Of a stretch of 41,947 nt of DNA, positions 1,544 to 41,947 are shown piece by piece. Source of the DNA: a virus; the IMG/VR virus record IMGVR_UViG_3300042278_000030, one strand, 5' to 3'. Made by a program: the position numbers and the translations under genes. How positions within the stretch are numbered: position 1 is the first letter of the stretch; every line of letters begins with the position of its first letter. Below the pieces are notes generated by a model. It had not been told where the DNA came from, made no database searches, and saw only the letters and a list, made by a program, of their open reading frames with translations.

Positions 1544-2311
1544 ATGAGTAATATCCTATCTCTGGCAAAGAAGCCGGAAAACCGCCCGATCATCTGCACC
1601 ATTACAGGCGATGCTGGCGTAGGCAAAACCCGTCTTGCCGCAACTTTTCCAAATCCTGTTTTTATCCGTGCCGAAGATGGCATGCAGTCCATCCCGGAAG
1701 ATGAGCGCCCGGACGCCTTCCCCGTTATCTCTGACCCGAAAGATTTGTGGGATCAGCTTACCGCGCTGATTAACGAAGAGCATGACTACAAAACAGTTGT
1801 TATTGACTCCGTAACGGCGCTGGAGCGGCTTTTCATCCAGCATGTTGTAGATAGCGACCCGAAGAAGCCAAAGAGCATCAACCAGGCCTTGGGCGGGTAC
1901 GGTGCCGGGCTGGCGGCGGTGGCATCCATGCATCAGCGAGTACGAAAGGCGGCGGGCCTGCTGAACGCCAAAGGCATCCACGTTGTTTTCATTGCGCATG
2001 CCGATACCGTAACCATCGAGCTGCCAGACCAAGACCCGTACACCCGCTATGATCTGCGACTTGGCAAGCGTAGCACTGCGCCCTATGTCGATGACGTTGA
2101 TCTGGTCGGCTACCTCAAACTGGAAACTTTCACCACTGGGGATGGCGAGCGCAAGAAGGCCATTTCTGATGGGACCCGCGTTCTGGTGACGTACACAACC
2201 GCCGCGAACGTGAGCAAAAACCGTTATCACATTTCTGATGACTTGGAAGTGCCGGAAGGCAAAAACCCTCTGATTGATTACGTACCCACCCTGAAAGGAG
2301 AAGTGGCATGA
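1544..2311 (+). CDS. Sak4-like / AAA_24 RecA-family ATPase
   Basis: Walker A ITGDAGVGKT and Walker B-like TVVIDS. SD tGGAGAcaatccgATG. The stop overlaps the next start (ATGA at 2308-2311). Confidence 0.8.
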   Translation: MSNILSLAKKPENRPIICTITGDAGVGKTRLAATFPNPVFIRAEDGMQSIPEDERPDAFPVISDPKDLWDQLTALINEEHDYKTVVIDSVTALERLFIQHVVDSDPKKPKSINQALGGYGAGLAAVASMHQRVRKAAGLLNAKGIHVVFIAHADTVTIELPDQDPYTRYDLRLGKRSTAPYVDDVDLVGYLKLETFTTGDGERKKAISDGTRVLVTYTTAANVSKNRYHISDDLEVPEGKNPLIDYVPTLKGEVA

Positions 2312-2844
2312 GCTTTTTTAACTTTGATGACAAAGTGGACGGCAACTTTGATTCCGGCGCTGGAATGGAACCGATTCCAAACAACACTAACGTCCTGGCG
2401 GCGCCAGACGAGGCCAAATGGGACGAATATGATGGTGACCGTTACATCAGTTTGCGCTGGTCGGTGATTGCGCCGAAGGAGTACAAGAACCGGAAAATCT
2501 TCCAAAAGGTCCGCGTCATGGACTCTGACGCGAAAAAGGCGGAGAAGGCCAAGCGCATGCTGGCGGCTATCGACGCGAACGCGGGCGGCAAGTTGATGAA
2601 GGCCAACGAGGAGCCCACGGATAAAAGTCTGACCATGGCGCTCGTCAACAAGCCGATGGTGCTGAAGGTCATGAAGTGGGAGATTCCGGCGGAGCAGTCC
2701 AACGACGGCCAGCATCGCGAAGGTAACTGGGTGGCAGCGGTAAGCCCCCGAAAAGGCAGCGAGCCAGTGGAGCCGGTGAAGAAGGAGGAGCCAGCGCCTG
2801 CGCCTGTTGATGATGAATTCGAGGATGACGTGCCTTTTAATTGA
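2308..2844 (+). CDS. DUF669-like phage ssDNA-binding protein with SSB-type acidic C-terminal tip
   Basis: Lies immediately after the Sak4-like ATPase, which is the usual DUF669 position. The Pro/Glu-rich linker ends in DDEFEDDVPFN, resembling the DDDIPF tip of bacterial SSB. Confidence 0.7.
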   Translation: MSFFNFDDKVDGNFDSGAGMEPIPNNTNVLAAPDEAKWDEYDGDRYISLRWSVIAPKEYKNRKIFQKVRVMDSDAKKAEKAKRMLAAIDANAGGKLMKANEEPTDKSLTMALVNKPMVLKVMKWEIPAEQSNDGQHREGNWVAAVSPRKGSEPVEPVKKEEPAPAPVDDEFEDDVPFN

Positions 2845-2882
2845 CGCCGCCCTGGGCGTTCCGAAATACAGGAAGCTTTTAG

Positions 2883-2907
2883 GGGCGGTGCTCGCCGCCC
2901 TTTCTTT
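2883..2907 (+). terminator. Intrinsic terminator/attenuator after the SSB-like gene
   Basis: GGGCGG (2883-2888) pairs with CCGCCC (2895-2900) around loop tgctcg, followed by tttcttt. Confidence 0.5.
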
Positions 2908-2926
2908 CCCGATGCGGAGTAAAAAG

Positions 2927-3784
2927 ATGGAAAAGCAGCGATCAAACGCATGGTTTGAAAAGCGAAAAGGCCGCGTTACAGGCTCCAATGTCGGGGCAAT
3001 ACTTGGCCTGAACAAATACAAAACCGCAGATGACGTGCTGCGCGAAATGGTTCGGGCATGGCACGGCGCTGAACGAGAGTTTGAGGGCAATCAGGCCACG
3101 GAGTGGGGGACCTTTAACGAGGATGGCGCTATTGCGGAGTACCAGATGGAAACCGGCAATAAGGTTGAAGAGTGCGGTTTCTTCGTGCATCCAGAACATG
3201 AGTGGCTAGGCGCAAGCCCTGACGGATTGATTGGTGCGGACGGTACAGTGGAAATTAAGTGCCCATATGGTAAGCGGGACAGCGCCGATTTTAAGCCTTT
3301 GGATGACCAGCCGCATTACGCCGCGCAAGTACAAATTGAAATGGCATGTACCGGCAGAACGTGGTGCCACTTCTATCAATGGAGCCCGAAAGGAACGAAG
3401 TTAGAGCGCGTAGAGATCGACCCCCTGTTTCTGGAGTGGGCCATTCCCGAGTTGCGTCGATTCCATGACCGCTTTCTTTCAGAGATTGACAACCCCGAAC
3501 ATTTGCAGCCGAAGCGCAAGCAAATCAACAGCGCCATAGCTGAAAAGCTGGTGCAAGAGTACGACGAACTGACCGAAGCGCTGGAGCGCGCCAGCCAGCG
3601 GAAAAAGGAAATCCTGGACACGCTCGTCCTGTTAGCCAAAGAGCGCGACGCGGAAATCTGCGGCAAGAAGCTTACCAAGGTGGAGCGCAAGGGCAGCATC
3701 GACTACAAAAGGATCCCGGAGCTGGCCGGCGTCAATCTTGAGCAGTACCGCAAGGCGAGTTCTAGTTATTGGAGGCTGTCGTGA
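2927..3784 (+). CDS. YqaJ / lambda-exonuclease-like PD-(D/E)XK recombination exonuclease
   Basis: SD GGAGtaaaaagATG at 2927 (chosen over the longer 2807 start in the ORF track). Motifs RVTGSNVGAILG, ASPDGLI and VEIKCP match the YqaJ catalytic core. Confidence 0.85.
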   Translation: MEKQRSNAWFEKRKGRVTGSNVGAILGLNKYKTADDVLREMVRAWHGAEREFEGNQATEWGTFNEDGAIAEYQMETGNKVEECGFFVHPEHEWLGASPDGLIGADGTVEIKCPYGKRDSADFKPLDDQPHYAAQVQIEMACTGRTWCHFYQWSPKGTKLERVEIDPLFLEWAIPELRRFHDRFLSEIDNPEHLQPKRKQINSAIAEKLVQEYDELTEALERASQRKKEILDTLVLLAKERDAEICGKKLTKVERKGSIDYKRIPELAGVNLEQYRKASSSYWRLS

Positions 3785-4566
3785 GCAAAAGAGACTGGAG
3801 AAGAGAGCATGAAGTAGCGTGCCAAGCCCTTGAGGTTGCGAAAGGGCGGGCAGAAGATCGGTATAGTCTTCCGGCTTCGGTAATTGTTTTCAGGAAAATA
3901 GACAAAAACGGCAAGGTCTCCGTTGGATTTAAGGACTATTCGTCCGGCAAAAATTTCAGGCTTATCCCTAGAAAAGAAGTTGAGTCAATGGGAATTGATG
4001 TTTACTCGTTGCCTGAGTACACGGAGTTCAGCAAAAAATACTATGAACTTCTGGATGCCGCAAACAAATATTTCTATGAGTGCAGAAAGGCATCAAAGGA
4101 CGTGCTCTATTCTGCAAAAATAGAATACTTGCATCGTTTTTATGCAGATCGGCGTGAGATATACGATTCTTATATGTCCAGCCCTGAATGGGCAGCTAAG
4201 CGTCAGCAATGCTACCAGGTGCACGGAACTACTTGTGTGGACTGCATGGAGCGCCCTGCCACGGATATTCATCACAAGCACTATGAGACTCTGGGTGATG
4301 AGTGCCCTCAGAATGACATTGTTCCGCTTTGCTCGCAGTGCCATAAGGCAAGGCACGATTCCGGAGACCTAGAAAACGCCCCTAAAAAGTACGCATACGG
4401 AAATGGTGGCGTGAAGGTTGGCAAGGTGGTGGATCATCCAAGGTTCGGAAAAGGATTGGTTGTAGAGGTTAATGGAAGTGGGAAGATGGCCAGGGTTAAA
4501 GTTAATTTTTGCGATTTCGATAGGTGGCTTGTGCTTGCTTATGCGCCACTAAGGTTGATCGGATGA
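3781..4566 (+). CDS. HNH nuclease fused to a UvrD/PcrA C-terminal Tudor-like (DUF3553-like) domain
   Basis: GTG start at 3781 follows GGAGG (3771-3775) and overlaps the upstream stop (GTGA). HNH motif CVDCMERPATDIHHKHY...NDIVPLCSQCHKARH. The C-terminal VGKVVDHPRFGKGLVVEVNGSGKMARVKVNFCDFDRWLVLAYAPLRLI matches the UvrD/PcrA CTD pattern. GC is visibly lower than in flanking genes. Confidence 0.75.
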   Translation: MSKRDWRREHEVACQALEVAKGRAEDRYSLPASVIVFRKIDKNGKVSVGFKDYSSGKNFRLIPRKEVESMGIDVYSLPEYTEFSKKYYELLDAANKYFYECRKASKDVLYSAKIEYLHRFYADRREIYDSYMSSPEWAAKRQQCYQVHGTTCVDCMERPATDIHHKHYETLGDECPQNDIVPLCSQCHKARHDSGDLENAPKKYAYGNGGVKVGKVVDHPRFGKGLVVEVNGSGKMARVKVNFCDFDRWLVLAYAPLRLIG

Positions 4567-6374
4567 TCCTCCAAAACCTCCGCCCCTATCAGCGGGAGGC
4601 ATTCCAGGCGGTCATGGACTGGGTTCGCCAGTCCGTAGACCCATGCCTGATAGAGTCGGCAACTGGTAGTGGAAAAAGCTGGATAATCGCGGCCCTGGCT
4701 TACGAGCTTCACCGAATCAGCAAGGGCAAGCACGTCCTGTGCCTCGCCCCGAATGCCGATCTGGTAAAGCAAAACCGAGAGAAATACCTTACCACTGGCG
4801 ACCCGGCAAGCGTGTATAGCGCCTCTGCCGGAGGGCGCTGTTTAAGGCATCCGGTTGTTTTCGCCACCCCTGGAACTTTCAAGAAAGTCGCCCGCACCAT
4901 GGGCAGCAAATTTTGCGCGGTCATCATTGACGAGTGCCACGGCATTACGCCTACCATCAAGACAATCATCGACCTGATGCGGGACAGCAACCCGAACTTG
5001 CGAATTATCGGGACAACTGCCACCCCATATCGCCTAGGTGAAGGATTCATCTACCAGATGGATGAAGAGGGCAATCTAAACGGCGACCATTGTGCCAAGG
5101 ACCCGTATTTCGTCAAAAAGGTTTATACAGTTCCGGCAAGGCTTCTGATTGATAGCGGTTACCTGACGCGGCCCGTCATTGGCGCCATTGGCGCTGAGCA
5201 ATACGATACGGCAAATCTTGTACTGAATAATTCGGGCAAATGGAAGCAATCAACCGTCGATCAGGCATTTGTGGGGCACGGTCGGAAAACGGCGGCCGTT
5301 GTTGCCGATGTTGTCAGGCAGTCGCAAGGGCGCAAAGGCGTTATGCTGTTTGCAGCAACCGTAGAGCACGCCAGAGAGATCATGGCAAGCCTTCCGCCTT
5401 CAATGAGCCGCATGATAGGGGGCGACGAAAACACCGGGAAAAAGGCGCGTGAGGCGCTTGTGCGCGACTTCAAAGAGAGGAAGTTTAAGTATTTGGTATC
5501 AGTACAGACCATGACAACCGGCGTTGATTTTGTCCACGTCGATGTAATCGCTATTCTCCGCGCTACGGAGTCCGTGGCCCTGCTTCAGCAGATCATCGGG
5601 CGCGGCCTGCGCGTATGCGAGGGCAAAGACGATGTACTGATTCTGGACTACGCTGAGAACCTGGAGCGGCATTGCCCAGATGGCGATATTTTCGCGCCAG
5701 AAATCACCGCCAGCATGACTAGTGGAGAAAAGGGCATCATTGACGCCGAGTGCGCTGAGTGCGGAGCGATCAACAAATTCAGCGCCCGCAAGAACCCTGA
5801 GCAGTTTAAAGTCAACCGATACGGTTACTTTGTGGATCTCGCAGGCCAGGAGATTGCCACGGAGCATGGTCCAATGCCCGCCCATTATGGAAGGCGCTGC
5901 CAGGGTCTCGTTAAGCGCGGGCCGACTCATGTGCAATGCAGCCACCGATGGACATCGAAAGAATGCAAAAGGTGCGGAGAGCATAACGACATTGCCGCTC
6001 GGTATTGCGCGTCATGCCGTGAAGAGCTTATAGACCCAAACGAGAAGCTGCGTATCGAGTTTAAGCGCATGAAGCGCGACCCGAGCCAGATACAGACCGA
6101 CCGCGTTATCAACATGGAGCAGAAGCCAGTCGTTACGCGCAGCGGCAAAGAGTGCCTGCTAGTGACATTTGAAACGGAGTGGCGGTCATTCAGCGTGTGG
6201 CTGCATCCAGAAGCTCGGAACGGAAGAATGCAGGCCGAATACCTGCAATTTATGGACGCCACTAAGAGCGGCGTAGAGCGGCCTGAGACCGTGACTTACC
6301 TAAAGGAAGAGTCTGGGTTTTATCGAATATTTGATTATGGGAGAAAAGCTGATGAGATTCCCGAGATGGCTTAA
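4563..6374 (+). CDS. SF2 (DEAD/DEAH, ResIII-type) DNA helicase with C-terminal zinc-ribbon region
   Basis: ATGA overlap with the upstream stop. Motif I ATGSGKS, motif II IIDECH, motif III TATP, motif VI QQIIGRGLR. The C-terminal part carries CAECG...C and CKRCG...CASC pairs. Confidence 0.9.
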   Translation: MILQNLRPYQREAFQAVMDWVRQSVDPCLIESATGSGKSWIIAALAYELHRISKGKHVLCLAPNADLVKQNREKYLTTGDPASVYSASAGGRCLRHPVVFATPGTFKKVARTMGSKFCAVIIDECHGITPTIKTIIDLMRDSNPNLRIIGTTATPYRLGEGFIYQMDEEGNLNGDHCAKDPYFVKKVYTVPARLLIDSGYLTRPVIGAIGAEQYDTANLVLNNSGKWKQSTVDQAFVGHGRKTAAVVADVVRQSQGRKGVMLFAATVEHAREIMASLPPSMSRMIGGDENTGKKAREALVRDFKERKFKYLVSVQTMTTGVDFVHVDVIAILRATESVALLQQIIGRGLRVCEGKDDVLILDYAENLERHCPDGDIFAPEITASMTSGEKGIIDAECAECGAINKFSARKNPEQFKVNRYGYFVDLAGQEIATEHGPMPAHYGRRCQGLVKRGPTHVQCSHRWTSKECKRCGEHNDIAARYCASCREELIDPNEKLRIEFKRMKRDPSQIQTDRVINMEQKPVVTRSGKECLLVTFETEWRSFSVWLHPEARNGRMQAEYLQFMDATKSGVERPETVTYLKEESGFYRIFDYGRKADEIPEMA

Positions 6375-8111: not shown

Positions 8112-9095
8112 TTAGAGTCTGACCGGCATAACGATCAGGTTGTCATTGATCAGGCAGGGCCTGCCCTCCTGTATTGCCATGGTAACCGCGCCCCCGCCGA
8201 TGGTCGAAAGCGCATCAATCAGATATTGGATATTGTACCCGATAACCAGATCCGCTTGCCCCTCGAAATCAATGGCCGTTTCGGCTCCCTCGTTAACCAT
8301 GGCAATCTGGCCGTCAGCGAAGGTCATTTTGACAAGCGTCCCGCCAAGCGCCATGGTGCGCAGCTCGGCAATCATGGCGTCACAATCAAACGTCACGGAC
8401 TGCGCCAGGTCTTTAGGCACCACTCGCCGCCAATCCACATACTTGCCGTCAATTAGCCCCGTGCTGAACCGGCTGGAGTCACCGTCAATGACTAGCTGTC
8501 GGTCAGATACCATAACCTGGCCGCTCATGGCGCCAATCTGGCGGGCGCTGTCAGCCGGAATAATGATATCCGGCCCTTCGTATGGCAGCTCCGTAAACGC
8601 CAGCCTGTGGCCGTCTGTGGCCACGCAGAAGCCGTTAGTCAGGTGAACGCCGTTAAGGATATGTCGAACGTCCTTTGTCGGGATAGCATGAGCCACAAAC
8701 GCGATAGCATCCGCCAGCTGCTCACCAGTAATGCCGCAATCATCCGCCGCGCCGTAGTCAGGCTGAGGAAAATCAGCGTACCGCAGGCTCTCCAGCTTCA
8801 GTTTTGACCGCCCCTGCTTAATCTGCGTCGGGGTCAGCTCTATTTCGCCTGACTTCATCCCGCCGGCTGCCTTTGCCAATTTGTCAGCTTCAATCGTGCA
8901 CTGTCCCGGCTCGCCTTGCGCCGGGAACTTTTCGGAATAGGTGCGGATGCTATCGTTGGCGGTAATGGTCACGGTTTCGCCGTCGAAGTCTACAGCGACA
9001 TGCGACAGCACCGGGATGGTGCTTTTTGCTCTTGCAACCTTGGCCGCTCGCTTTGTCGCAGCTGCCAGTACGTCTTTTGTGGTCTGGATTTTCAT
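8112..9095 (-). CDS. dnaN: DNA polymerase III beta sliding clamp homologue (short, 327 aa)
   Basis: DnaN-like N-terminus (STIPVLSHVAVDFDGETVTITANDSIRT), central ATDGHRLA and the characteristic C-terminal ...LIVMPVRL. Confidence 0.9.
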   Translation of the reverse strand: MKIQTTKDVLAAATKRAAKVARAKSTIPVLSHVAVDFDGETVTITANDSIRTYSEKFPAQGEPGQCTIEADKLAKAAGGMKSGEIELTPTQIKQGRSKLKLESLRYADFPQPDYGAADDCGITGEQLADAIAFVAHAIPTKDVRHILNGVHLTNGFCVATDGHRLAFTELPYEGPDIIIPADSARQIGAMSGQVMVSDRQLVIDGDSSRFSTGLIDGKYVDWRRVVPKDLAQSVTFDCDAMIAELRTMALGGTLVKMTFADGQIAMVNEGAETAIDFEGQADLVIGYNIQYLIDALSTIGGGAVTMAIQEGRPCLINDNLIVMPVRL

Positions 9096-18052: not shown

Positions 18053-18163
18053 ACCGCCTCCCGATAAACACCCGCCCCGAAACAGGGGCTGTCAGTTGCG
18101 CCAGGCGCTTCGATTCTGTGCATTACTTACCACCACCACACCTTGTTTTTAGCGGCTCCCATT

Positions 18164-20377
18164 TTAATCCACACTGAACACAACGTTTATAGAAAATAGT
18201 GCTGGCTGCACACTGCCCCAGTTAATAACAACATCCCCGGTTTGTGCGTTTATAAGCGCATATGCACCTTCAAACTCACCCACTCCAGACACATACATTG
18301 AAGATGGTGGCCTGTACCCAATCGGCAGATTAAAGGCGCTGGTATTGTCTGTCCCACCTGATAACGTAACACTAATATGCACACGACCGTCAAACAACCT
18401 TCTGTATCCCATGGATGAAGGATTCAGCGTAAATCCGTTTTGCATGGATGGAGTTTGCCAATCTAACCCTTCATCCTTTGATCCAGACAGTTCATTTGGA
18501 GCAACGTTATATTTGATATCCGCGCTTGCTACTGTGTTGTTGCGCAACTTAGCACTTGACACGCCTGACATTCTAATCCCGCTGTTGTACACATCCCCAG
18601 CCGTGCTTAAAATGTCGTTGTTGACGACTGTGGGTCGAGGGGAATTTTCGATCACGATAGCATCGCGCTTGACAGAATCGATGGTGTAGTCGTTGTTTGC
18701 GTTATGTATCACGTTGCTCATTACATTAATACGATTACAGTTATCGATTACTACCGCTGTGCGAGTTGTGTGTCTAATAACGTTGTTCGATATCGTTAAA
18801 TTGCTGACCCCACTTACAACGAACGCGCTACTACAGACTGACCCGATTGGATCATTTGATGTAACAAATTTTCCATTTATGGAATTATCCGTAATGGACT
18901 GAACAAAGAATGTGGAAGCAAGAACGTTATCTGGGTCAGTTATTTTTGAGTACACAAATGTCGGGTTGTATTCTCTGATTATGTTCCCGCTTATCTTCGC
19001 TCCAGCCAAGTAACCCTTGTAGAATCCTGCACCACAAAAATCGGCGTTGTTATCAACTACCTCTATGTGGGACGTTGCTACTGATGTGGTAGGCATCTCT
19101 ACGCACCAGCTATCCAAGCTATCTTGGTCAGCGGGAGCAGCAACTCCGGAGGGTATAGTGTACTGATACCCCAGACTGTGGAACCGGTTTGATAATATCC
19201 TCCACCCACGGAAACTCGACACCGTTCCTGAGTTATATGTGTGCAGCTTTCCTACTACACCGCGTTTACATACCGAAAATAAAGAATCTGAAATTATCGC
19301 ATTCCTACCGACTCCAACAACTGAGTCGTTCAGATACGCGAATATACAATTCTTAACGATAAAATCCAAGTTTGAGTATACTTCTGCATCTCCGACCGAC
19401 GTTCTGTCTACTACCAACCCATTTGCTGATCCGAAGCTGGTGGTACTACCGTTTCCTCGAAGCGCAATGTTTTCTACTCGAAGTCCATACCCAGAACACT
19501 GGATGATATCTATAGGTTGATCGGTATAAAAGCCCTCCGTATATTCAGCAGATGGCTCGGAGTATAAAGTAAAGTCATTAGCGTTTATTGCTATACTCGA
19601 TGCAACGTAATACGATGGATATCCATTTGACAGACTTCCAGATTTTGGAACCCGAACAGAACCACCATCTCCAGCAAACCGTATGGCTGCATTAATAGCT
19701 GGCGAACAATCGGTAGTTTGATCTCCGACGGCCCCAAACTGAACTATGCTAATAACACCGTTGGTAAACAGTCCTTTAGCCTGCAAGCCGCTGCCGACCA
19801 AATCAATATAGCTGCCGCCATCATCAACCCCAGTCCCCGTGGCCACAATTTCGTAGTCGTTTCCGCCACCATCGCCAGGAGTGTAATACCCAAGCGTCCG
19901 GACCTTTTGTCCAACTTTCAGGTATGTCGCAGCTGCCATATCTGCAACATTGTCAAATGTGATAACACGCGCACTGATCGCGGCTTGAACGCTTACACCA
20001 TCTTCGGTACCAATCAAACCAGCGCCGCCGGCAGCGGCCAAGTCTTGGCGCAGCACAGCATCCCCAACCGATACAAGATTGCTGTCTACGTCCGGAGTAG
20101 TGGCGGTGGTTGTGTAAGGCAGGGTGCCGGCAGCCGCTCGGTAGAACTCGCCGTTGTATTCGATAACTTGGTTGTACATCGTCAGCTCAATGCCGGGCGC
20201 ATACGAGCCAAGAATATGATATCCGGCCTGCCCGGCCAGCGTTACGCGAGAGCGACCAAACCGATCAGTCCACGTGGTATCGGTAGAGTTGACCGCAGCG
20301 TCCAGATTTTCCGAGTTATCCGAAAGGTCACGCGGATCGGTGGAGCCAAGTGGATTGCCAGTGTTATAAGTCGTCAT
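18164..20377 (-). CDS. Tailspike / depolymerase-like receptor-binding protein (right-handed beta-helix, pectate-lyase-3-like)
   Basis: Conserved adaptor N-terminus NPLGSTDPRDLSDNSENLDAAVNS. IVQFGAVGDQTTDCSPAINAAI is typical of pectate-lyase-fold spikes. Repetitive N-x-I/V beta-helix rungs follow. Confidence 0.9.
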   Translation of the reverse strand: MTTYNTGNPLGSTDPRDLSDNSENLDAAVNSTDTTWTDRFGRSRVTLAGQAGYHILGSYAPGIELTMYNQVIEYNGEFYRAAAGTLPYTTTATTPDVDSNLVSVGDAVLRQDLAAAGGAGLIGTEDGVSVQAAISARVITFDNVADMAAATYLKVGQKVRTLGYYTPGDGGGNDYEIVATGTGVDDGGSYIDLVGSGLQAKGLFTNGVISIVQFGAVGDQTTDCSPAINAAIRFAGDGGSVRVPKSGSLSNGYPSYYVASSIAINANDFTLYSEPSAEYTEGFYTDQPIDIIQCSGYGLRVENIALRGNGSTTSFGSANGLVVDRTSVGDAEVYSNLDFIVKNCIFAYLNDSVVGVGRNAIISDSLFSVCKRGVVGKLHTYNSGTVSSFRGWRILSNRFHSLGYQYTIPSGVAAPADQDSLDSWCVEMPTTSVATSHIEVVDNNADFCGAGFYKGYLAGAKISGNIIREYNPTFVYSKITDPDNVLASTFFVQSITDNSINGKFVTSNDPIGSVCSSAFVVSGVSNLTISNNVIRHTTRTAVVIDNCNRINVMSNVIHNANNDYTIDSVKRDAIVIENSPRPTVVNNDILSTAGDVYNSGIRMSGVSSAKLRNNTVASADIKYNVAPNELSGSKDEGLDWQTPSMQNGFTLNPSSMGYRRLFDGRVHISVTLSGGTDNTSAFNLPIGYRPPSSMYVSGVGEFEGAYALINAQTGDVVINWGSVQPALFSINVVFSVD

Positions 20378-28177: not shown

Positions 28178-28599
28178 CTCTTAACCCTCTCCTCAAGCCG
28201 TTTGGCGTTGCGTTGGACAATGCTGTTCCAGTTTTGGGCGGCTAGGCGGAGGAAGCGATACCTTGCCTCCATATAAACGCTGTACCGGGCAGTCCAACCA
28301 AATATGATTCTGTCGCCTAGTTGTGCCCTTGAAATTATAAGAGCGGCTGCATCAGAATCCCACGTTCCGCCTGCATAACTGTCTGGCTTTATAGACTCTC
28401 CAGACGGCGTATTATTTAGGGCGGCGACACCGCTATTCCTCAAGAACCCGGTATCTACTGGCATGTTCCCGCCAGATCCTCTTGGCCTTTGAGCTTCCTC
28501 AATCAAATCTTGCGCAGACTGCCTAAACACAGCAGTCATTCTCGGCGTTGATTTGGCAACAAAAGCGCCAACCTGGCTGGCGAAGTCGTTTTTTGCCAT
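28174..28599 (-). CDS. HK97 gp10-like head-tail joining protein
   Basis: ATG 28599 overlaps the HNH stop (TAATG). VDTGFLRNS is the gp10-family motif. Confidence 0.75.
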   Translation of the reverse strand: MAKNDFASQVGAFVAKSTPRMTAVFRQSAQDLIEEAQRPRGSGGNMPVDTGFLRNSGVAALNNTPSGESIKPDSYAGGTWDSDAAALIISRAQLGDRIIFGWTARYSVYMEARYRFLRLAAQNWNSIVQRNAKRLEERVKR

Positions 28600-29423
28600 T
28601 AAATATGCCTCCAATTTCGCCCCTGCCTGATGCAGTAAATGGTTGTTGGCTTTACGCCAAGTATGTTTGCAACCTCTGCGGCAGTCAAATGGGCCAGATC
28701 ATACTTAGCCATCCTTGCCTGATCTTCCGTTAGCTTTGACCATGGTGCTTTTTCTCCGTACAAGTGCGTCCCATGATCGTATCTATCGTGGCAATTGTCG
28801 ATTACGGTTGCCCATCTTAAATGCCGTGGGTTTACGCAACCCTTATTCCCATTGCCGCAACTGTGTGCGGCCTGCATGTCGTCCTTGGGCGGCATACCGT
28901 GAGCCGCCTCGCACATGACTCTCGATGCTATCCGCTTCCTGCCGTCTTTTGTTTGAATAGTTCCATAGCCATTTGTCAGAGTTGAGAATGGCCAGCGCAG
29001 ACAATCGTCGCCATCATAATCCTTGTGTCGATCAATCCAGCCAGTCGGGCTATTTTTCTCATGGTACAGAGGGTCGCCATGAGCTAAAAAGCAATTGTAG
29101 TGCCTTGAGCAATACGATTTTGAGTAGTGCTTTCTTTCGCAACCCTCGATCGAGCAATATCTAGGCTTTTCGGATTCATACAATGCGTCAACTGAGCCAA
29201 GTCGCTTCTTTCTTAGGTGGTGTGCTCGGCACAGCCCTCTTGTGTCGGGCTTGCTATGGCATCCCTCAACAATGCATTCTTTTGGAACTTGGCCGGGGCC
29301 GTAGGTATTGGTACGCCCTGCTAGAGGATCACCATATTGCTTATACTTTGCGTAATGCTTGCCACAATAACCGATCTTCACATGCCGCTTATTCTCGCAG
29401 CCATCAACAATGCAGGTTTTCAT
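28599..29423 (-). CDS. Free-standing HNH homing-type endonuclease with three N-terminal Cys/His repeats and a C-terminal HTH
   Basis: Three repeats of C-x-V/I-D/E-GC...G-x-C-x-x-H. HNH core AAHSCGNGNKGCVNPRHLRWAT...N. HTH AAEVANILGVKPTTIYCIRQG. GC is lower than in neighbouring genes. Confidence 0.9.
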   Translation of the reverse strand: MKTCIVDGCENKRHVKIGYCGKHYAKYKQYGDPLAGRTNTYGPGQVPKECIVEGCHSKPDTRGLCRAHHLRKKRLGSVDALYESEKPRYCSIEGCERKHYSKSYCSRHYNCFLAHGDPLYHEKNSPTGWIDRHKDYDGDDCLRWPFSTLTNGYGTIQTKDGRKRIASRVMCEAAHGMPPKDDMQAAHSCGNGNKGCVNPRHLRWATVIDNCHDRYDHGTHLYGEKAPWSKLTEDQARMAKYDLAHLTAAEVANILGVKPTTIYCIRQGRNWRHI

Positions 29424-33515: not shown

Positions 33516-34955
33516 TTACTCGAATTCGCTACCGTTCGTCAATAGGGACGAGGCCGCGTCATCCAGGATGGCATCATCCTCCCTGTCCGGGTTAAGGATA
33601 ATGCGCCCCTCTCGGATCATGTGGATGGCGTCAATAGCGCCGTAAATGGTCCCCACGCCCTGCTGAATCGCGGCCAGGTCTTGCGCGCTTAGGCTGGTTT
33701 CCCAGAAAGACTGGTTCAACCGGTACAGTACGCCTTTCGGGTCTTCCCCGGCAAATCTCGCCACGTCCTCAAGGGCCGCTTCCAGCGCCTCGCTGCCATT
33801 GCCAACAAGGTTATCCAGTGTTGACGCCTCAGCACTTGCCGCCAACCTTGCGGCTTCTGCCGTTTCGGTTTGCCCGCCTCTCTGAACCAGGCGCGCACCA
33901 ATGGCCACCATTTGCGCCTCTTCGTGCGCCATCGTGCCCAGAATATCGCCCTGACGACTATCGCCCTGTAATAGCTTTGCAGAGCCGCCGCCCGCCGTGA
34001 CAAGGCCGTTACGCCTACCAATGGTTACGCCGTTGGGGTTAGCCCTTTGGAACTCATCAAGATCCATTGTGCCGATATCAAGATGCAGCGTGCCCTGGGC
34101 GCTGAAGAACTGGTTTTCTTTCAACTCTGCCGTGCTTTGGTAGTGCGCAATGTTCAGCACAGCCATATCGTAAAGCGGAGCAACATCCGGCTCCGGATAG
34201 TTGTTCGTTGCGCCTGCGATGTGGAACGGGATGTGGTCGAACGTAGCGCCGCCAGCCATGCGAGGTGTATATTCTGCCGTCAGAGTTTCGCCGGACTCGT
34301 CGTAAACGGCCTGGCTGTAAACGCCGTCTCTCAAGCGCAATACGCGGTAAATAAGCTTGTCTTCGTGGCCGAACTCGTCGTTCGAATCGTCCACCGATTC
34401 CGCCAGCACGACAAGCGTCAACATCTTGCGCCCGTTAACGCCTTCGAATCGCCAGTTGATAATGCTTTCGGCAGGGTAAGCTGACACCGTAGGCCGCAGT
34501 CCTAGCTGCCTGGCTTTGCGCTTGTCCGACTTGGCCGGAGCTTCCGGGTAATCGACCAATAGGCCATACCGCCCAACGGTCAACAGCTCGCCAACCATCT
34601 CTTTCGCCAGCTGGTCAACGCTCTGTCCCGCCCCGTCGATATTCTCCAGCAAATCCTCAACTGCCTTTGGCAATTCATAGGTAGGCGGCTTTCGGAAAAC
34701 CATCCCCGTCAGGGCTTCTTTGGTGCGGCTTGTCACGCCCATGAAGTAGGCGCGCTCAATGTATTGCCTGTAGCGCACCGGGTCAGCAGGGCTGATCACT
34801 GTACCGCTTGCATCCTTCGTGTCCTCGGCAAACGATGCCGGCAGGTAGACGGTCCCGCGCCGCTTAATTGCGCTCTGCCCCGCCACACAGTCACGGACTA
34901 GCTGCCAATCTGGTAGGTTTCGCGTATAGTCTGGGTGCGGAGTTGATACCGGCAT
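33516..34955 (-). CDS. Portal protein
   Basis: 479 aa, immediately after terL. Confidence 0.9.
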   Translation of the reverse strand: MPVSTPHPDYTRNLPDWQLVRDCVAGQSAIKRRGTVYLPASFAEDTKDASGTVISPADPVRYRQYIERAYFMGVTSRTKEALTGMVFRKPPTYELPKAVEDLLENIDGAGQSVDQLAKEMVGELLTVGRYGLLVDYPEAPAKSDKRKARQLGLRPTVSAYPAESIINWRFEGVNGRKMLTLVVLAESVDDSNDEFGHEDKLIYRVLRLRDGVYSQAVYDESGETLTAEYTPRMAGGATFDHIPFHIAGATNNYPEPDVAPLYDMAVLNIAHYQSTAELKENQFFSAQGTLHLDIGTMDLDEFQRANPNGVTIGRRNGLVTAGGGSAKLLQGDSRQGDILGTMAHEEAQMVAIGARLVQRGGQTETAEAARLAASAEASTLDNLVGNGSEALEAALEDVARFAGEDPKGVLYRLNQSFWETSLSAQDLAAIQQGVGTIYGAIDAIHMIREGRIILNPDREDDAILDDAASSLLTNGSEFE

Positions 34956-35011: not shown

Positions 35012-36406
35012 TTATAGGGCAAAAGTGACTGGGATGGGTTTGTTTATGCTTCGCCTTGATACAAGCATATCCTGAACCGCATCCATAAGAGGGTCAACCG
35101 TGTCATCATGGGCTGCAACCGGGAACAGGCTCAGCTCGTGCAATAGATCGGACAGGCATTCATGGCGCATTGGCAGCCACACATTGCCAGCCTCGACCAT
35201 GGGCGCGGCGTCGTACCCTCTGGTGATCTTGTCCTTGTCTCGCTGAATACCTTCAACCGGTATGCCGCCTTGCTTTAGCTGCTGGATCAGACCGGTTCCG
35301 CTGGCCTTGTCCTCAACTTTCATTTTCCTAAGATTTCCGGTTCCTGCGTGCCGACACTTATCCCAAAACGCCCGCGCCTGGCTCAAAAGCTGGGGCGCTT
35401 CCCACTTGCCCCTGATCATGTCAATCAGGTAAATCTTGCCGTCTTTGCCCTTGCCCCAGTGTTGGAACACGCTGAAGTCGTTTTCCTGTCCGGTTTTCAT
35501 GGCCGTGTCTGCGTAAATCATGCGGTATTCAAGTGGCGGCAATTCGTGCCAGTGCTTCAGCCACTCGTCTTTAAATATGCCGCCCCCAGACGGTGCGGGG
35601 CGCTGCATGTACTGGCCCGAGAACACGTAACTGTTCGCTGCCTTGAGCCTGTCCAGCATATCTAGCGGGAACTGCTCAGGCCAGAAGCTATCGCCGTTAT
35701 CCGTCATGGCTGGAATGCATAGATGATCCCACTCTTCGCCGTTGCCGCCAGCCAAAAGCCAGCCGGTCAGGTCTGACTCGTGAAGCCGCTGCATGATCAA
35801 GATGATAGGCGTGTCCGGGCTGTTTTTGCGGCTTTCCATGGTGGTGGCGAACCAGTCCAAAACGTTTTGGCGCATGGTCTGACTGTTTGCCTCGCCAGCC
35901 TTGTGAGGATCGTCTATTACTATTGCGCCCTTGAATCTCCCCCCCATGCCTCCGGCGCCATATCCAGTTATAGAGCCTTCCGCCCCAGTTGCGTACACAA
36001 TGCCGCCCTGAGCCGTGCGGAACTCATCCTTTGCTTTTGAGTCCCCGGCCAGTGCGGTGTGGCTGAATATCTCGGCATAGGTTTCGTGCTGCATGATCGC
36101 CCTAACGGCATAGGCGTTTGCGGTGGCGAGCCGCTTGGAATAGCTGGCGTGAATGAATTCGGACTCCGGGAAGTTGCCCATGCACCACGCGATAAAGTTG
36201 ATCACCGCCAGCTCGGTCTTGCCGGAGCGCGGCGGGACGTTAATGATCAGTCGCTTGGTTTTGCCGATTACGACGCGCTCAAGGGCATTGCAGATTTCGG
36301 CTTGGTGCCAGTTCTCTTTTAGCTCCGCACCCTTTCGGGCGCGAAACATGGTCTTCGTAAAGGTGAGAAGGTCGGTGCGGTTGTCCGCGATGTCATTCGG
36401 GTTCAT
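35012..36406 (-). CDS. terL: Terminase large subunit
   Basis: Walker A VPPRSGKT, Walker B-like AIVIDDPH and a C-terminal RNaseH-like nuclease region (HDDTVD). Confidence 0.95.
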   Translation of the reverse strand: MNPNDIADNRTDLLTFTKTMFRARKGAELKENWHQAEICNALERVVIGKTKRLIINVPPRSGKTELAVINFIAWCMGNFPESEFIHASYSKRLATANAYAVRAIMQHETYAEIFSHTALAGDSKAKDEFRTAQGGIVYATGAEGSITGYGAGGMGGRFKGAIVIDDPHKAGEANSQTMRQNVLDWFATTMESRKNSPDTPIILIMQRLHESDLTGWLLAGGNGEEWDHLCIPAMTDNGDSFWPEQFPLDMLDRLKAANSYVFSGQYMQRPAPSGGGIFKDEWLKHWHELPPLEYRMIYADTAMKTGQENDFSVFQHWGKGKDGKIYLIDMIRGKWEAPQLLSQARAFWDKCRHAGTGNLRKMKVEDKASGTGLIQQLKQGGIPVEGIQRDKDKITRGYDAAPMVEAGNVWLPMRHECLSDLLHELSLFPVAAHDDTVDPLMDAVQDMLVSRRSINKPIPVTFAL

Positions 36407-40022: not shown

Positions 40023-40201
40023 AGTGCAAACCTCCAGCCGCCGTTGGTGTCCATTTCCACTCTGCGCCAGCCGCCTGGAATAACATCGGCTTGAAAGCGG
40101 TCTGTGTCGTCAAGGTCTGCAAACCGGTACAAGCCCGCCTCGTATGAGACTGCGTAAACTGCCCGGTTGTTTGGCTCCAGGTAGAATCCTAGGTTTTTCA
40201 T
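40019..40201 (-). CDS. 60-aa hypothetical early protein
   Basis: ATG 40201 forms an ATGA overlap with the upstream ORF. Sequence begins MKNLGFYLEPNNRAVYAVSYEAGLYRF... Confidence 0.6.
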   Translation of the reverse strand: MKNLGFYLEPNNRAVYAVSYEAGLYRFADLDDTDRFQADVIPGGWRRVEMDTNGGWRFAL

Positions 40202-40356
40202 TTCGCGCCCCCATTCCGTGCCAGCCACTTCTCCGCACCTTTGCGGGTTTTGAAGTCTTTGGACTTGGTGAAAGTCATGGCGGTGAAGGTGCCGTTGCCG
40301 TTATCGAAAATGCCTTTGCTGATCTGCTCGTTGTTGCCGAGGTTGATTGTTTTCAT
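40198..40356 (-). CDS. 52-aa hypothetical protein, first gene of the leftward early operon
   Basis: Not in the ORF track. GGAGcaacaaccATG. Sequence MKTINLGNNEQISKGIFDNGNGTFTAMTFTKSKDFKTRKGAEKWLARNGGAK. Confidence 0.55.
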   Translation of the reverse strand: MKTINLGNNEQISKGIFDNGNGTFTAMTFTKSKDFKTRKGAEKWLARNGGAK

Positions 40357-40392
40357 GGTTGTTGCTCCGTTGCCGTTGTCTTGATGATTCTA

Positions 40393-40420
40393 ATTATACA
40401 CACATACACACCTTGCGCAA
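40393..40420 (-). promoter_or_regulatory. Leftward early promoter
   Basis: Minus strand TTGCGC - 16 nt - TATAAT, about 35 nt upstream of the ATG at 40356. Confidence 0.6.
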
Positions 40421-40433
40421 GAAAGGCAGGGCT

Positions 40434-40453
40434 AGTTTTGTAAAGTTTTGTAA
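40434..40453. repeat. Perfect tandem 10-mer AGTTTTGTAA x2 just upstream of the leftward -35
   Basis: Read directly from the sequence: ctAGTTTTGTAAAGTTTTGTAAcagg. Confidence 0.9.
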
Positions 40454-40462
40454 CAGGAGAGA

Positions 40463-40703
40463 ACGGGTAGTAACGGTTAGTATTTTACTTGCTAAGCCTT
40501 TTCTTCTTTTAACTTATTGTTTTTTATATATATTTTAGAAGGGTTAGTACGGATAGACGGTTAGTTAAAGACAATGGAAATCCGAAACCCTAAATTGTTT
40601 CTTTAGAGTCCTGCTATCCGTACTAACCGTTTTTAAGTGATTGATTCTGAAAGGATTAACGCTTAGCAAGATTCGACTAACCGTTGACTAAGCCACTAAG
40701 CGT
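40463..40703. repeat. Iteron cluster flanking an AT-rich tract: putative replication origin / regulatory region
   Basis: ACGGTTAGT at 40473-81 and 40557-65. Its complement ACTAACCGT at 40622-30 and 40676-84. Degenerate copies at 40463, 40540, 40549, 40614 and 40695. A 15-bp inverted repeat GGTTAGTACGGATAG (40542-56) / CTATCCGTACTAACC (40614-28). AT-rich ttttcttcttttaacttattgttttttatatatatttt at about 40499-40538. Confidence 0.55.
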
Positions 40704-40770
40704 TAAGGGCTAAATCCATGAAAACGAGGCGTTTTCGGTGCTCAAGCTTCATGTATAACCCCGCTGTGGC

Positions 40771-40800
40771 TTGCCGTCAACCCAGCCCGTGGTCTATAGT
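40771..40800 (+). promoter_or_regulatory. Rightward early promoter
   Basis: TTGCCG - 18 nt - TATAGT, then AGGAG (40826-30) and the ATG at 40840. Confidence 0.5.
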
Positions 40801-40839
40801 TCGCTGTACCTTTACGACAATCAACAGGAGTAAAACGCT

Positions 40840-41013
40840 ATGATGACCATTGAAGAAATCCGCAAGCAACTGCAAGACCTGCGCCCCGTCAGGGTTTCCG
40901 AGGCTACTGGCCTGCACACCAACACCGTTCGGGATATTCGCGACAACCCACAAGCCAATCCAACCTACCGTGCCCTCAAAGCGCTGTCTGACTACCTGGA
41001 GTCCCGCCAATGA
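40840..41013 (+). CDS. 57-aa HTH DNA-binding protein (Cro-like)
   Basis: Not in the ORF track. VSEATGLHTNTVRDIRDN is an HTH segment. SD AGGAGtaaaacgctATG. Confidence 0.7.
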   Translation: MMTIEEIRKQLQDLRPVRVSEATGLHTNTVRDIRDNPQANPTYRALKALSDYLESRQ

Positions 41014-41947
41014 TGTATCGGGATTTTCTAGAGGCCGATATCAGGGTAATCGCCCTTTGGCCTATACGCGGTGGCGAATGCGCGTGCGGCGATCCGCTGT
41101 GCGCCATGGCCGGCAAACATCCCCTAGCCTCAAACTGGCAGCACTCCCCGCTATGGTCTGATGACCAGCTGGAAGTCATGGAAGAAATGGACCAGTTCGA
41201 GACCGGCTACGGCGTACTGGCGGACGGCTTGCTGGTGGTTGATGTGGATGAGCGTAACGGCGGAGCGGAATCTTACGCCAAGTTGATAGAGGAGATCCCG
41301 CAAGTCGCAAGCGCCGGGCTAATCGTGAGAACTGGGAGCGGCGGCGAGTCGAAACACCTTTACTTCCGGATGCCGGAGCCCGCCGCGCTGGTGCAGTCGC
41401 TGCCGCAATACCCAGGCATTGACTTTAAGTCCACCGGCTATGTGGTAGGTCCAGGCAGTTTACACGCAAGCGGGAACCGATATGAGGTTCTGGTTGGCGA
41501 GCCTTCGGAGATCGAGGCCGCGCCGGAAGCCTTGGTAAACCTGCTTAAAAAGCCGGAGCGTCACCGCGCCAACGTTAACGGCAATCCAGTGGATTATACG
41601 CTGGAGGACCTGCGGAGCATGGTAGAGGCCATACCAAACGACGAAAGTACGGGATATGAAAAATATATCCGCGTCGGCATGGGGCTACACCAAGCCACCG
41701 GTGGACTACCAGAGGCGTTTGATATTTGGTTGGAGTGGGCGCGGAAGTCGCCACGCCATAGCAAAAACGGCCGCAGCCGCATCGAAAACCGCTGGCACAG
41801 CTTCGGGAAGTGCGCCGACCCGGTGACGCTTGGCACGCTGGTGCACTACGCAGAAGAGGCGGGATGGATTGCGCCGGTGGCGTTTACCAGCGACGTCCAT
41901 TTTGAGCTGCCGGAAGAGTCGCCAAGCCTGGAGGATGAAAGCGTAGA
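41010..41947 (+). CDS. Bifunctional primase-polymerase (Prim-Pol/AEP) N-terminal part; continues at 128..1466
   Basis: No stop to the window end, so it is absent from the ORF track. ATG 41010 overlaps the upstream stop. Motifs GLLVVDVDERNGG, GSGGESKHLYF and IDFKSTGYVVGPGSLHASGNRYE, then a PriCT-like region. Confidence 0.9.
   Translation, partial: MMYRDFLEADIRVIALWPIRGGECACGDPLCAMAGKHPLASNWQHSPLWSDDQLEVMEEMDQFETGYGVLADGLLVVDVDERNGGAESYAKLIEEIPQVASAGLIVRTGSGGESKHLYFRMPEPAALVQSLPQYPGIDFKSTGYVVGPGSLHASGNRYEVLVGEPSEIEAAPEALVNLLKKPERHRANVNGNPVDYTLEDLRSMVEAIPNDESTGYEKYIRVGMGLHQATGGLPEAFDIWLEWARKSPRHSKNGRSRIENRWHSFGKCADPVTLGTLVHYAEEAGWIAPVAFTSDVHFELPEESPSLEDESV
41821..41947. repeat. Exact 127-bp terminal duplication, copy 2
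   Basis: Identical to 1-127. Confidence 0.97.

Follow-up and report, generated by a model that had tools for sequence, protein, structure and literature searches.

An HNH nuclease with a UvrD/PcrA-type Tudor tail, encoded in a phage recombination operon

The window analysed here is the whole of IMG/VR virus record IMGVR_UViG_3300042278_000030, a stretch of 41,947 nucleotides from a virus, and this text concerns one of its genes, which encodes an HNH nuclease with a UvrD/PcrA-type Tudor domain as its tail (Table 1). The gene sits between those for a YqaJ/RecE-like exonuclease and a RadD/YejH-like superfamily 2 (SF2) helicase, and its 4-nucleotide overlaps with them couple it translationally to both. 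Because GGAGG lies five bases upstream and the family's homologues begin at the same residue, the GTG at 3781 is the correct start, as the initial annotation had it. Two other starts were considered and rejected: a TTG at 3769 has no ribosome site and is unsupported by the homologues, and an ATG at residue 70 would remove conserved residues. The stored gene call for this protein (P0003, 192 residues) begins at the latter, internal ATG and loses 69 conserved residues.

Table 1. Coordinates of the HNH-Tudor gene, its parts and the surrounding operon (positions in the window)
Feature	Positions	Strand	Remarks
HNH-Tudor gene	3781-4566	+	261 residues; GTG start, TGA stop (4564-4566)
Shine-Dalgarno sequence GGAGG	3771-3775	+	5 nucleotides upstream of GTG 3781; read from the sequence
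GTGA overlap	3781-3784	+	HNH start codon with the stop codon of the upstream YqaJ/RecE-like exonuclease gene
ATGA overlap	4563-4566	+	HNH stop codon with the start codon of the downstream RadD/YejH-like SF2 helicase gene
N-terminal domain, family-specific	3781-4176	+	residues 1-132
HNH (beta-beta-alpha-metal) nuclease core, predicted CxxC...CxxC zinc site	4177-4368	+	residues 133-196
Flexible linker	4369-4422	+	residues 197-214, without secondary structure
UvrD/PcrA-type Tudor domain	4423-4563	+	residues 215-261
Operon	1544-6374	+	Sak4-like annealase, DUF669 single-stranded DNA-binding protein (SSB), YqaJ/RecE-like exonuclease, HNH-Tudor, helicase
Sak4-like annealase	1544-2311	+	
DUF669 SSB	2308-2844	+	
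YqaJ/RecE-like exonuclease	about 2912-3784	+	
RadD/YejH-like SF2 helicase	4563-6374	+	

The last 50 or so residues of the protein had been likened to the C-terminus of E. coli UvrD, and every comparison bears this out. Pfam PF21196 scores the tail at 25.7 bits, above its cut-off of 23.9, and gives 45.2, 23.6, 22.7 and 22.0 bits for the relatives P0006, P0005, P0002 and P0023, respectively. The tail also matches positions 662-718 of the 720 in the NCBIfam UvrD equivalog, that is, its C-terminal end (E 3.8e-10), and residues 207-258 match the E. coli UvrD C-terminal domain (CTD) chains 7egs_B and 6yi2_A of the PDB (E 8e-7 and 1e-6). When the predicted tail structure is searched with Foldseek, the best match is again 7egs_B, with a template modelling (TM) score of 0.82, a root-mean-square deviation (rmsd) of 1.4 Å and 42% identity; 6yi2, 9dqs, 5dma and 7egt come next, the last three with TM 0.81-0.84. 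A structural aligner independent of Foldseek places the tail on the solved UvrD/PcrA CTDs with Z scores of 7.9-8.9, three of them at 8.6-8.9. Hidden Markov models, Foldseek and Z scores thus all find the UvrD/PcrA match that the initial annotation had set as its check. On profile and predicted structure, the tail is a genuine UvrD/PcrA-type Tudor domain, modelled as a five-stranded barrel. Like the CTDs of UvrD, PcrA and UvrD1 (PF21196; 7EGS, 6YI2, 5DMA, 9DQS, 7EGT), this barrel follows a flexible linker and forms the very end of the protein, and its sequence shares 42% identity with E. coli UvrD and as much as 54% with other proteobacterial UvrD C-ends. Unlike theirs, it is carried by a 200-residue HNH nuclease rather than by a 650-residue SF1 helicase, and it has an arginine in place of a lysine.

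The residues through which this domain binds its partners have been mapped in the helicases. Mutation of H681, W684, K712 or L714 in PcrA abolishes RNA polymerase binding, and K708 of UvrD, the counterpart of PcrA K712, is needed for that binding (PMC5397179). By alignment to the E. coli UvrD CTD chains, the same positions in the phage tail are H219, F222, R248 and L250. Three of the four are the residues of E. coli UvrD, including the phenylalanine at the F222 position, and the four positions are conserved even though nonsynonymous divergence (dN) is roughly fivefold higher in the tail than in the flanking genes. On the other side of the contact, the helicase interaction motif is a beta-hairpin, [VIL]DxxTGE[VIL][VILT], found in SI1 of RpoB and in domain 2 of UvrB, and RNA polymerase and UvrB compete for the same surface of the PcrA CTD (PMC8318588). 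The title of 7EGS describes the UvrD CTD with an RNA polymerase lobe, and that of 7EGT describes it with UvrB. Since the UvrD/PcrA Tudor domain also binds UvrB (PMC8318588; 7EGT title), RNA polymerase is not the sole candidate partner. A six-frame search of the phage genome found neither the motif nor its relaxed core, D..TGE, which favours a partner from the host.

Because residues are kept at all four of the required positions, we think it somewhat probable that the protein is a three-module phage accessory nuclease whose tail tethers it to host RNA polymerase or UvrB. The Tudor domain, on a flexible tether of about 20 residues, would dock on the helicase interaction motif of the RNA polymerase beta lobe/SI1 or of UvrB. 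DNA next to transcribing or stalled complexes would then be the target of the HNH site, and the bound tail would also compete with host UvrD. Such cutting might serve to provide ends for the neighbouring exonuclease and annealase, or alternatively to damage transcribed host DNA. It is possible, though doubtful, that the docking domain of host UvrD was taken specifically for transcription-coupled cutting, so as to bring the nuclease to RNA polymerase that is elongating or stalled, or to UvrB at sites of damage. The cuts would then either wreck transcribed host DNA or make ends at transcription-replication conflicts and R-loops, which the neighbouring exonuclease, annealase and helicase could turn into recombination-dependent replication.

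Several observations weigh against a tether to host complexes. The tail is dispensable, since it is missing from P0004, the closest relative (83% identity), and from most of the rest of the family. The lysine that is critical in PcrA and UvrD is replaced, though conservatively, by an arginine (R248) in the window's protein, and the family members P0005, P0006 and P0023 have lysine at this position. The annotated genes include no RNA polymerase of the phage's own, so that a nuclease riding on the host polymerase would also meet phage DNA, unless the N-terminal domain gives it specificity for a sequence or structure. Finally, SH3/Tudor-like barrels can bind DNA. An example is Hpy99I (3FC3), which like the phage protein combines a beta-beta-alpha-metal nuclease with a small barrel of this kind (Z 6.4 to the tail). 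The Hpy99I barrel differs in that it is N-terminal and DNA-binding, and has no specific sequence relation to UvrD.

The rest of the protein is best described from a full-length AlphaFold2 model built from 40 family sequences, which has a mean predicted local distance difference test (pLDDT) score of 93.4. The N-terminal domain is modelled as a helix (residues 6-27), three strands (34-62) and a 53-residue helix (80-132), and its first 117 residues reach a pLDDT of 93.4 when modelled alone. The initial annotation found the first 130 or so residues unassignable, and they have indeed no Pfam match and no convincing match in a fold search, where the best Z is 4.0 at an rmsd of 11 Å and Foldseek gives E > 0.1. 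The domain is nevertheless conserved in all family members, which it probably serves as their own means of recognising DNA or a partner. In the core, the HNH motifs are where they had been read (CVDC 152-155, DIHHKHY 162-168, CSQC 184-187 and HKARH 188-192). Profile searches match the core to nine HNH PHROGs, PHROG 119 (E 1.6e-8) and PHROG 144 (E 2.2e-7) among them, and Pfam HNH PF01844 gives 15.3 bits, under its cut-off of 21.4. The modelled core aligns with the HNH protein of phage GVE2 (5h0o) over 81 residues (Z 9.6, rmsd 2.6 Å) and with the Cas5-HNH of 8yb6 (Z 8.0). C152, C155, H164, H165, C184, C187, H188 and H192, the expected zinc and catalytic ligands, are invariant across the 40 family sequences, and D179 is nearly so; by conservation and modelling, the active site is predicted to be complete and zinc-stabilised. 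The protein resembles the GVE2-type phage HNH enzymes (5H0M/5H0O; PHROG 119/144) in its beta-beta-alpha-metal core, its four-cysteine zinc site and the helix that precedes it. It differs from them in its low sequence identity (16%), its extra N-terminal domain, its Tudor tail and its location in a recombination operon. In the linker, pLDDT goes down to 61 in the block of residues 201-210. It is within this linker that the Tudor-less relatives terminate, and their helicase gene then follows at once.

In the large protein collections, the family (E < 1e-30) comes to 24 clusters when grouped at 90% identity and to 11 representatives when grouped at 50%, all from metagenome-type sources. Its members are absent from the GTDB species-representative prokaryote genomes, where only distant HNH cores are found. 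When the operon is searched by megablast against 50,697 phage records, nothing matches, and tblastn of the whole protein against phage records returns HNH cores only. The nuclease family appears to be phage-only. The gene order exonuclease-HNH-helicase is kept in three metagenomic relatives, whose HNH proteins are 62% (L001), 61% (L036) and 44% (L037) identical to that of the window, and the exonuclease/HNH junction of L001 shows an equivalent overlap. Judged by the helicase, the nearest cultured phages are Pseudoalteromonas phage H103 (57.6%) and Alcaligenes phage CASP1 (55%), and in both of them the genes for exonuclease and helicase are directly adjacent, with no HNH gene in the middle.

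Base composition also sets the gene apart, as the initial annotation had noticed. The GC (guanine plus cytosine) fraction is 0.41-0.45 across 3751-4200 against a genome mean of 0.548 (standard deviation, sd, 0.042), and the dip is one of only three islands in the genome that lie more than 2 sd below this mean; the lowest part of the gene is the region of the N-terminal domain. The deficit is common to all four carriers, with the HNH gene at 0.46-0.48 and its flanks at 0.49-0.57. A recent acquisition had been proposed on this ground. The insertion stands, as the comparison with relatives lacking the gene shows; its recency does not. Because the same site and the same GC deficit recur in relatives down to 44% identity, and because the gene overlaps both neighbours, the insertion is old and well integrated. 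The gene is thus an insertion relative to H103 and CASP1, but an old one, and what varies by gain or loss is the Tudor tail, not the gene. Compared with L036, the HNH-Tudor protein is 61% identical while the flanking genes are at 86-92%, and this divergence is uneven: dN is 0.095 in the HNH core and 0.07-0.08 in the flanking genes, and it rises to 0.37 in the N-terminal domain and 0.43 in the tail. Only dN is usable in this comparison, as synonymous divergence is saturated between the relatives, and these values fit vertical descent and gene replacement alike.

Much of this pattern is what would be seen if the gene were an ordinary free-standing homing endonuclease that had spread into the exonuclease-helicase junction, its barrel giving DNA affinity or being a near-neutral passenger. 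Free-standing HNH and GIY-YIG homing genes likewise show presence or absence between conserved adjacent genes, a lower GC and a faster divergence. H103 and CASP1 lack the gene at precisely this junction, the GC of the gene falls below the flanks in all four related contigs, its protein has diverged far more than theirs, and the tail is patchy. The genome has, besides, a second gene of classical homing type (HNH_3 and helix-turn-helix, HTH), and Hpy99I sets a precedent for a beta-barrel that binds DNA beside an HNH site. However, this explanation is unlikely. The HNH-Tudor gene has no promoter or terminator of its own and is tightly joined to both neighbours by its overlaps, its position is stable among the relatives, and its HNH core has changed nearly as slowly as the flanking genes. 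The accessory modules of phage homing endonucleases are usually DNA-binding; the present one derives from a host repair helicase, where it docks on proteins. The tail is not a generic barrel but specifically a UvrD CTD (42-54% identity) with the protein-binding residues kept. Homing is also compatible with docking, since a homing enzyme could be tethered as well.

The distribution of the tail itself is irregular. It is present in five of the 24 aligned clusters (P0001, P0002, P0005, P0006 and P0023) and in four of the 11 representatives, namely the window's own protein (P0003), P0005, P0023 and P0028. On a tree of the part shared by all members, the tails require about six gains or losses, and the tail-less P0004 is the sister of the window's protein. 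The distant members P0032 and P0033 have another C-terminal extension of about 60 residues in place of the Tudor domain, with no Pfam match; C-terminal modules seem to be swapped within the family. As to where the tail came from, it was matched in 215 of 401 sampled Pseudomonadota genomes, once per genome and with identity up to 54%. Nearly all of these matches fall in open frames of 600-1700 residues, mostly 700-900, which is the size of UvrD. A profile of three phage tails retrieves, beyond the family, only UvrD/PcrA helicases. Among themselves the phage tails share 40-80% identity, and with the closer UvrD C-ends 43-61%. The pattern is star-like, and one capture is not separable in it from several, nor one gain with many losses from repeated gains. 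Judged by these sequences, the tail fits a capture of the 3' end of uvrD from a proteobacterium, followed by fast divergence.

Other searches with the tail return little. With tblastn against phage records, the only hits are bacterial uvrD fragments filed as phage records; a word-based search with the tail alone finds the window's own protein and P0002; and a scan of IMG/VR with narrow Tudor patterns gives no match. Two further proteins were seen. P0050 (249 residues) is an HNH protein with another N-terminus, whose Tudor-like end is 24-57% identical to the family tails and has no Pfam match; it may be an independent HNH-Tudor fusion. P0049 (387 residues) consists of three tandem PF21196 Tudor repeats (90.8 bits) and a CarD/TRCF RID-like segment, with no helicase or nuclease domain.

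The tail could also act as a decoy that blocks the helicase interaction motif of RNA polymerase and UvrB and so excludes host UvrD, with the nuclease function separate; excision repair and R-loop suppression would then be weakened during infection. We consider this quite unlikely. The competition between UvrB and RNA polymerase for the PcrA CTD lends the idea some support, as does the finding that blocking the association of PcrA with RNA polymerase increased R-loop levels in B. subtilis (PMC8318588). The phage tail keeps the partner-binding surface of PcrA/UvrD, and a few tiny stand-alone Tudor-like barrels exist among the phage proteins of BFVD, with weak Foldseek matches (E about 0.06). But a decoy has no need of a covalent link to a nuclease, and in this family the tail occurs only fused to one. 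A decoy would also need a high copy number, and the gene lies mid-operon without its own promoter. A phage partner, with the tail assembling a recombination complex around the co-translated helicase, the SSB or the exonuclease, is suggested by the translational coupling upstream and downstream and by the recombination/replication character of the operon, but it is very unlikely, as the genome lacks the helicase interaction motif and its core and L001, whose neighbouring genes are 80-90% identical, has no tail.

The fusion of an HNH nuclease with a UvrD/PcrA-type Tudor domain is not the standard architecture of homing HNH enzymes, as the initial annotation remarked. An HNH nuclease with a UvrD-type Tudor tail was not found described in the literature searched, nor does any cultured phage record show this architecture. 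BFVD holds no model that spans both the HNH core and the Tudor tail, ESM Atlas has only small HNH clusters (scores of 0.84 or less), and no defence-system model of PADLOC matches the protein. In the literature searched, repair helicases are described as docking through the UvrD/PcrA Tudor domain, and one polymerase family is predicted to do the same. That family is DinX, a mycobacterial Y-family polymerase with a C-terminal Tudor-like domain (DUF3553) behind a disordered linker, which is predicted to ride RNA polymerase; its tail is a precedent for the portability of the module (PMC6511836). The phage protein and DinX are both DNA enzymes with a PcrA/UvrD-like C-terminal Tudor domain behind a linker. 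They differ in that one is a phage nuclease and the other a cellular polymerase, and in that the tail of DinX belongs to DUF3553, a sister Pfam family of PF21196. If the proposed role is true, the gene is a simple natural case of an effector retargeted by the theft of a host interaction domain. Were docking real, it would become testable whether transcription complexes serve phages as cleavage landmarks, whether phages compete with UvrD, and whether phage and host contend for the helicase interaction motif of RNA polymerase; were it not, the protein would be one more accessory HNH with an odd tail. The experimental handle is a good one, with a 50-residue tail, four defined contact residues and, as built-in controls, tail-less relatives whose neighbouring genes are near-identical.

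An exact terminal repeat of 127 bp (1-127 = 41821-41947) shows the window to be a circular phage assembly, complete at about 41.8 kb, and its prim-pol/primase gene is split over both ends (41010-41945 and 3-1466). The genome is of siphovirus type, with terminase, portal, tape measure and tail genes. On the + strand, the sole promoter-like site is at 1463-1491, upstream of the Sak4-like annealase gene, and the scan for such sites found none flanking the HNH gene. The genes for the large terminase (35012-36406) and the portal (33516-34955) are both on the strand opposite the HNH gene. A terminase-associated packaging HNH of the HK97 gp74/GVE2 type was considered and rejected, because some 30 kb separate the HNH-Tudor gene, in its early recombination operon, from the genes for terminase. 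The second HNH gene (28599-29423, minus strand) is unrelated to the first and lies within the structural operon. It encodes HNH_3 and a C-terminal HTH_17 (Pfam 21.1 and 22.3 bits, both below the cut-offs), which is the layout of a classical free-standing homing endonuclease. Among the large open reading frames scanned, no replicative polymerase was seen; an open reading frame on the minus strand (8112-9095) matches PHROG 947, 'DNA polymerase processivity factor' (E 1.3e-56). The other two islands of low GC are at 18101-19800, in the distal part of the tail-fibre gene (18164-20377), and at 40201-40900, preceding the prim-pol gene.

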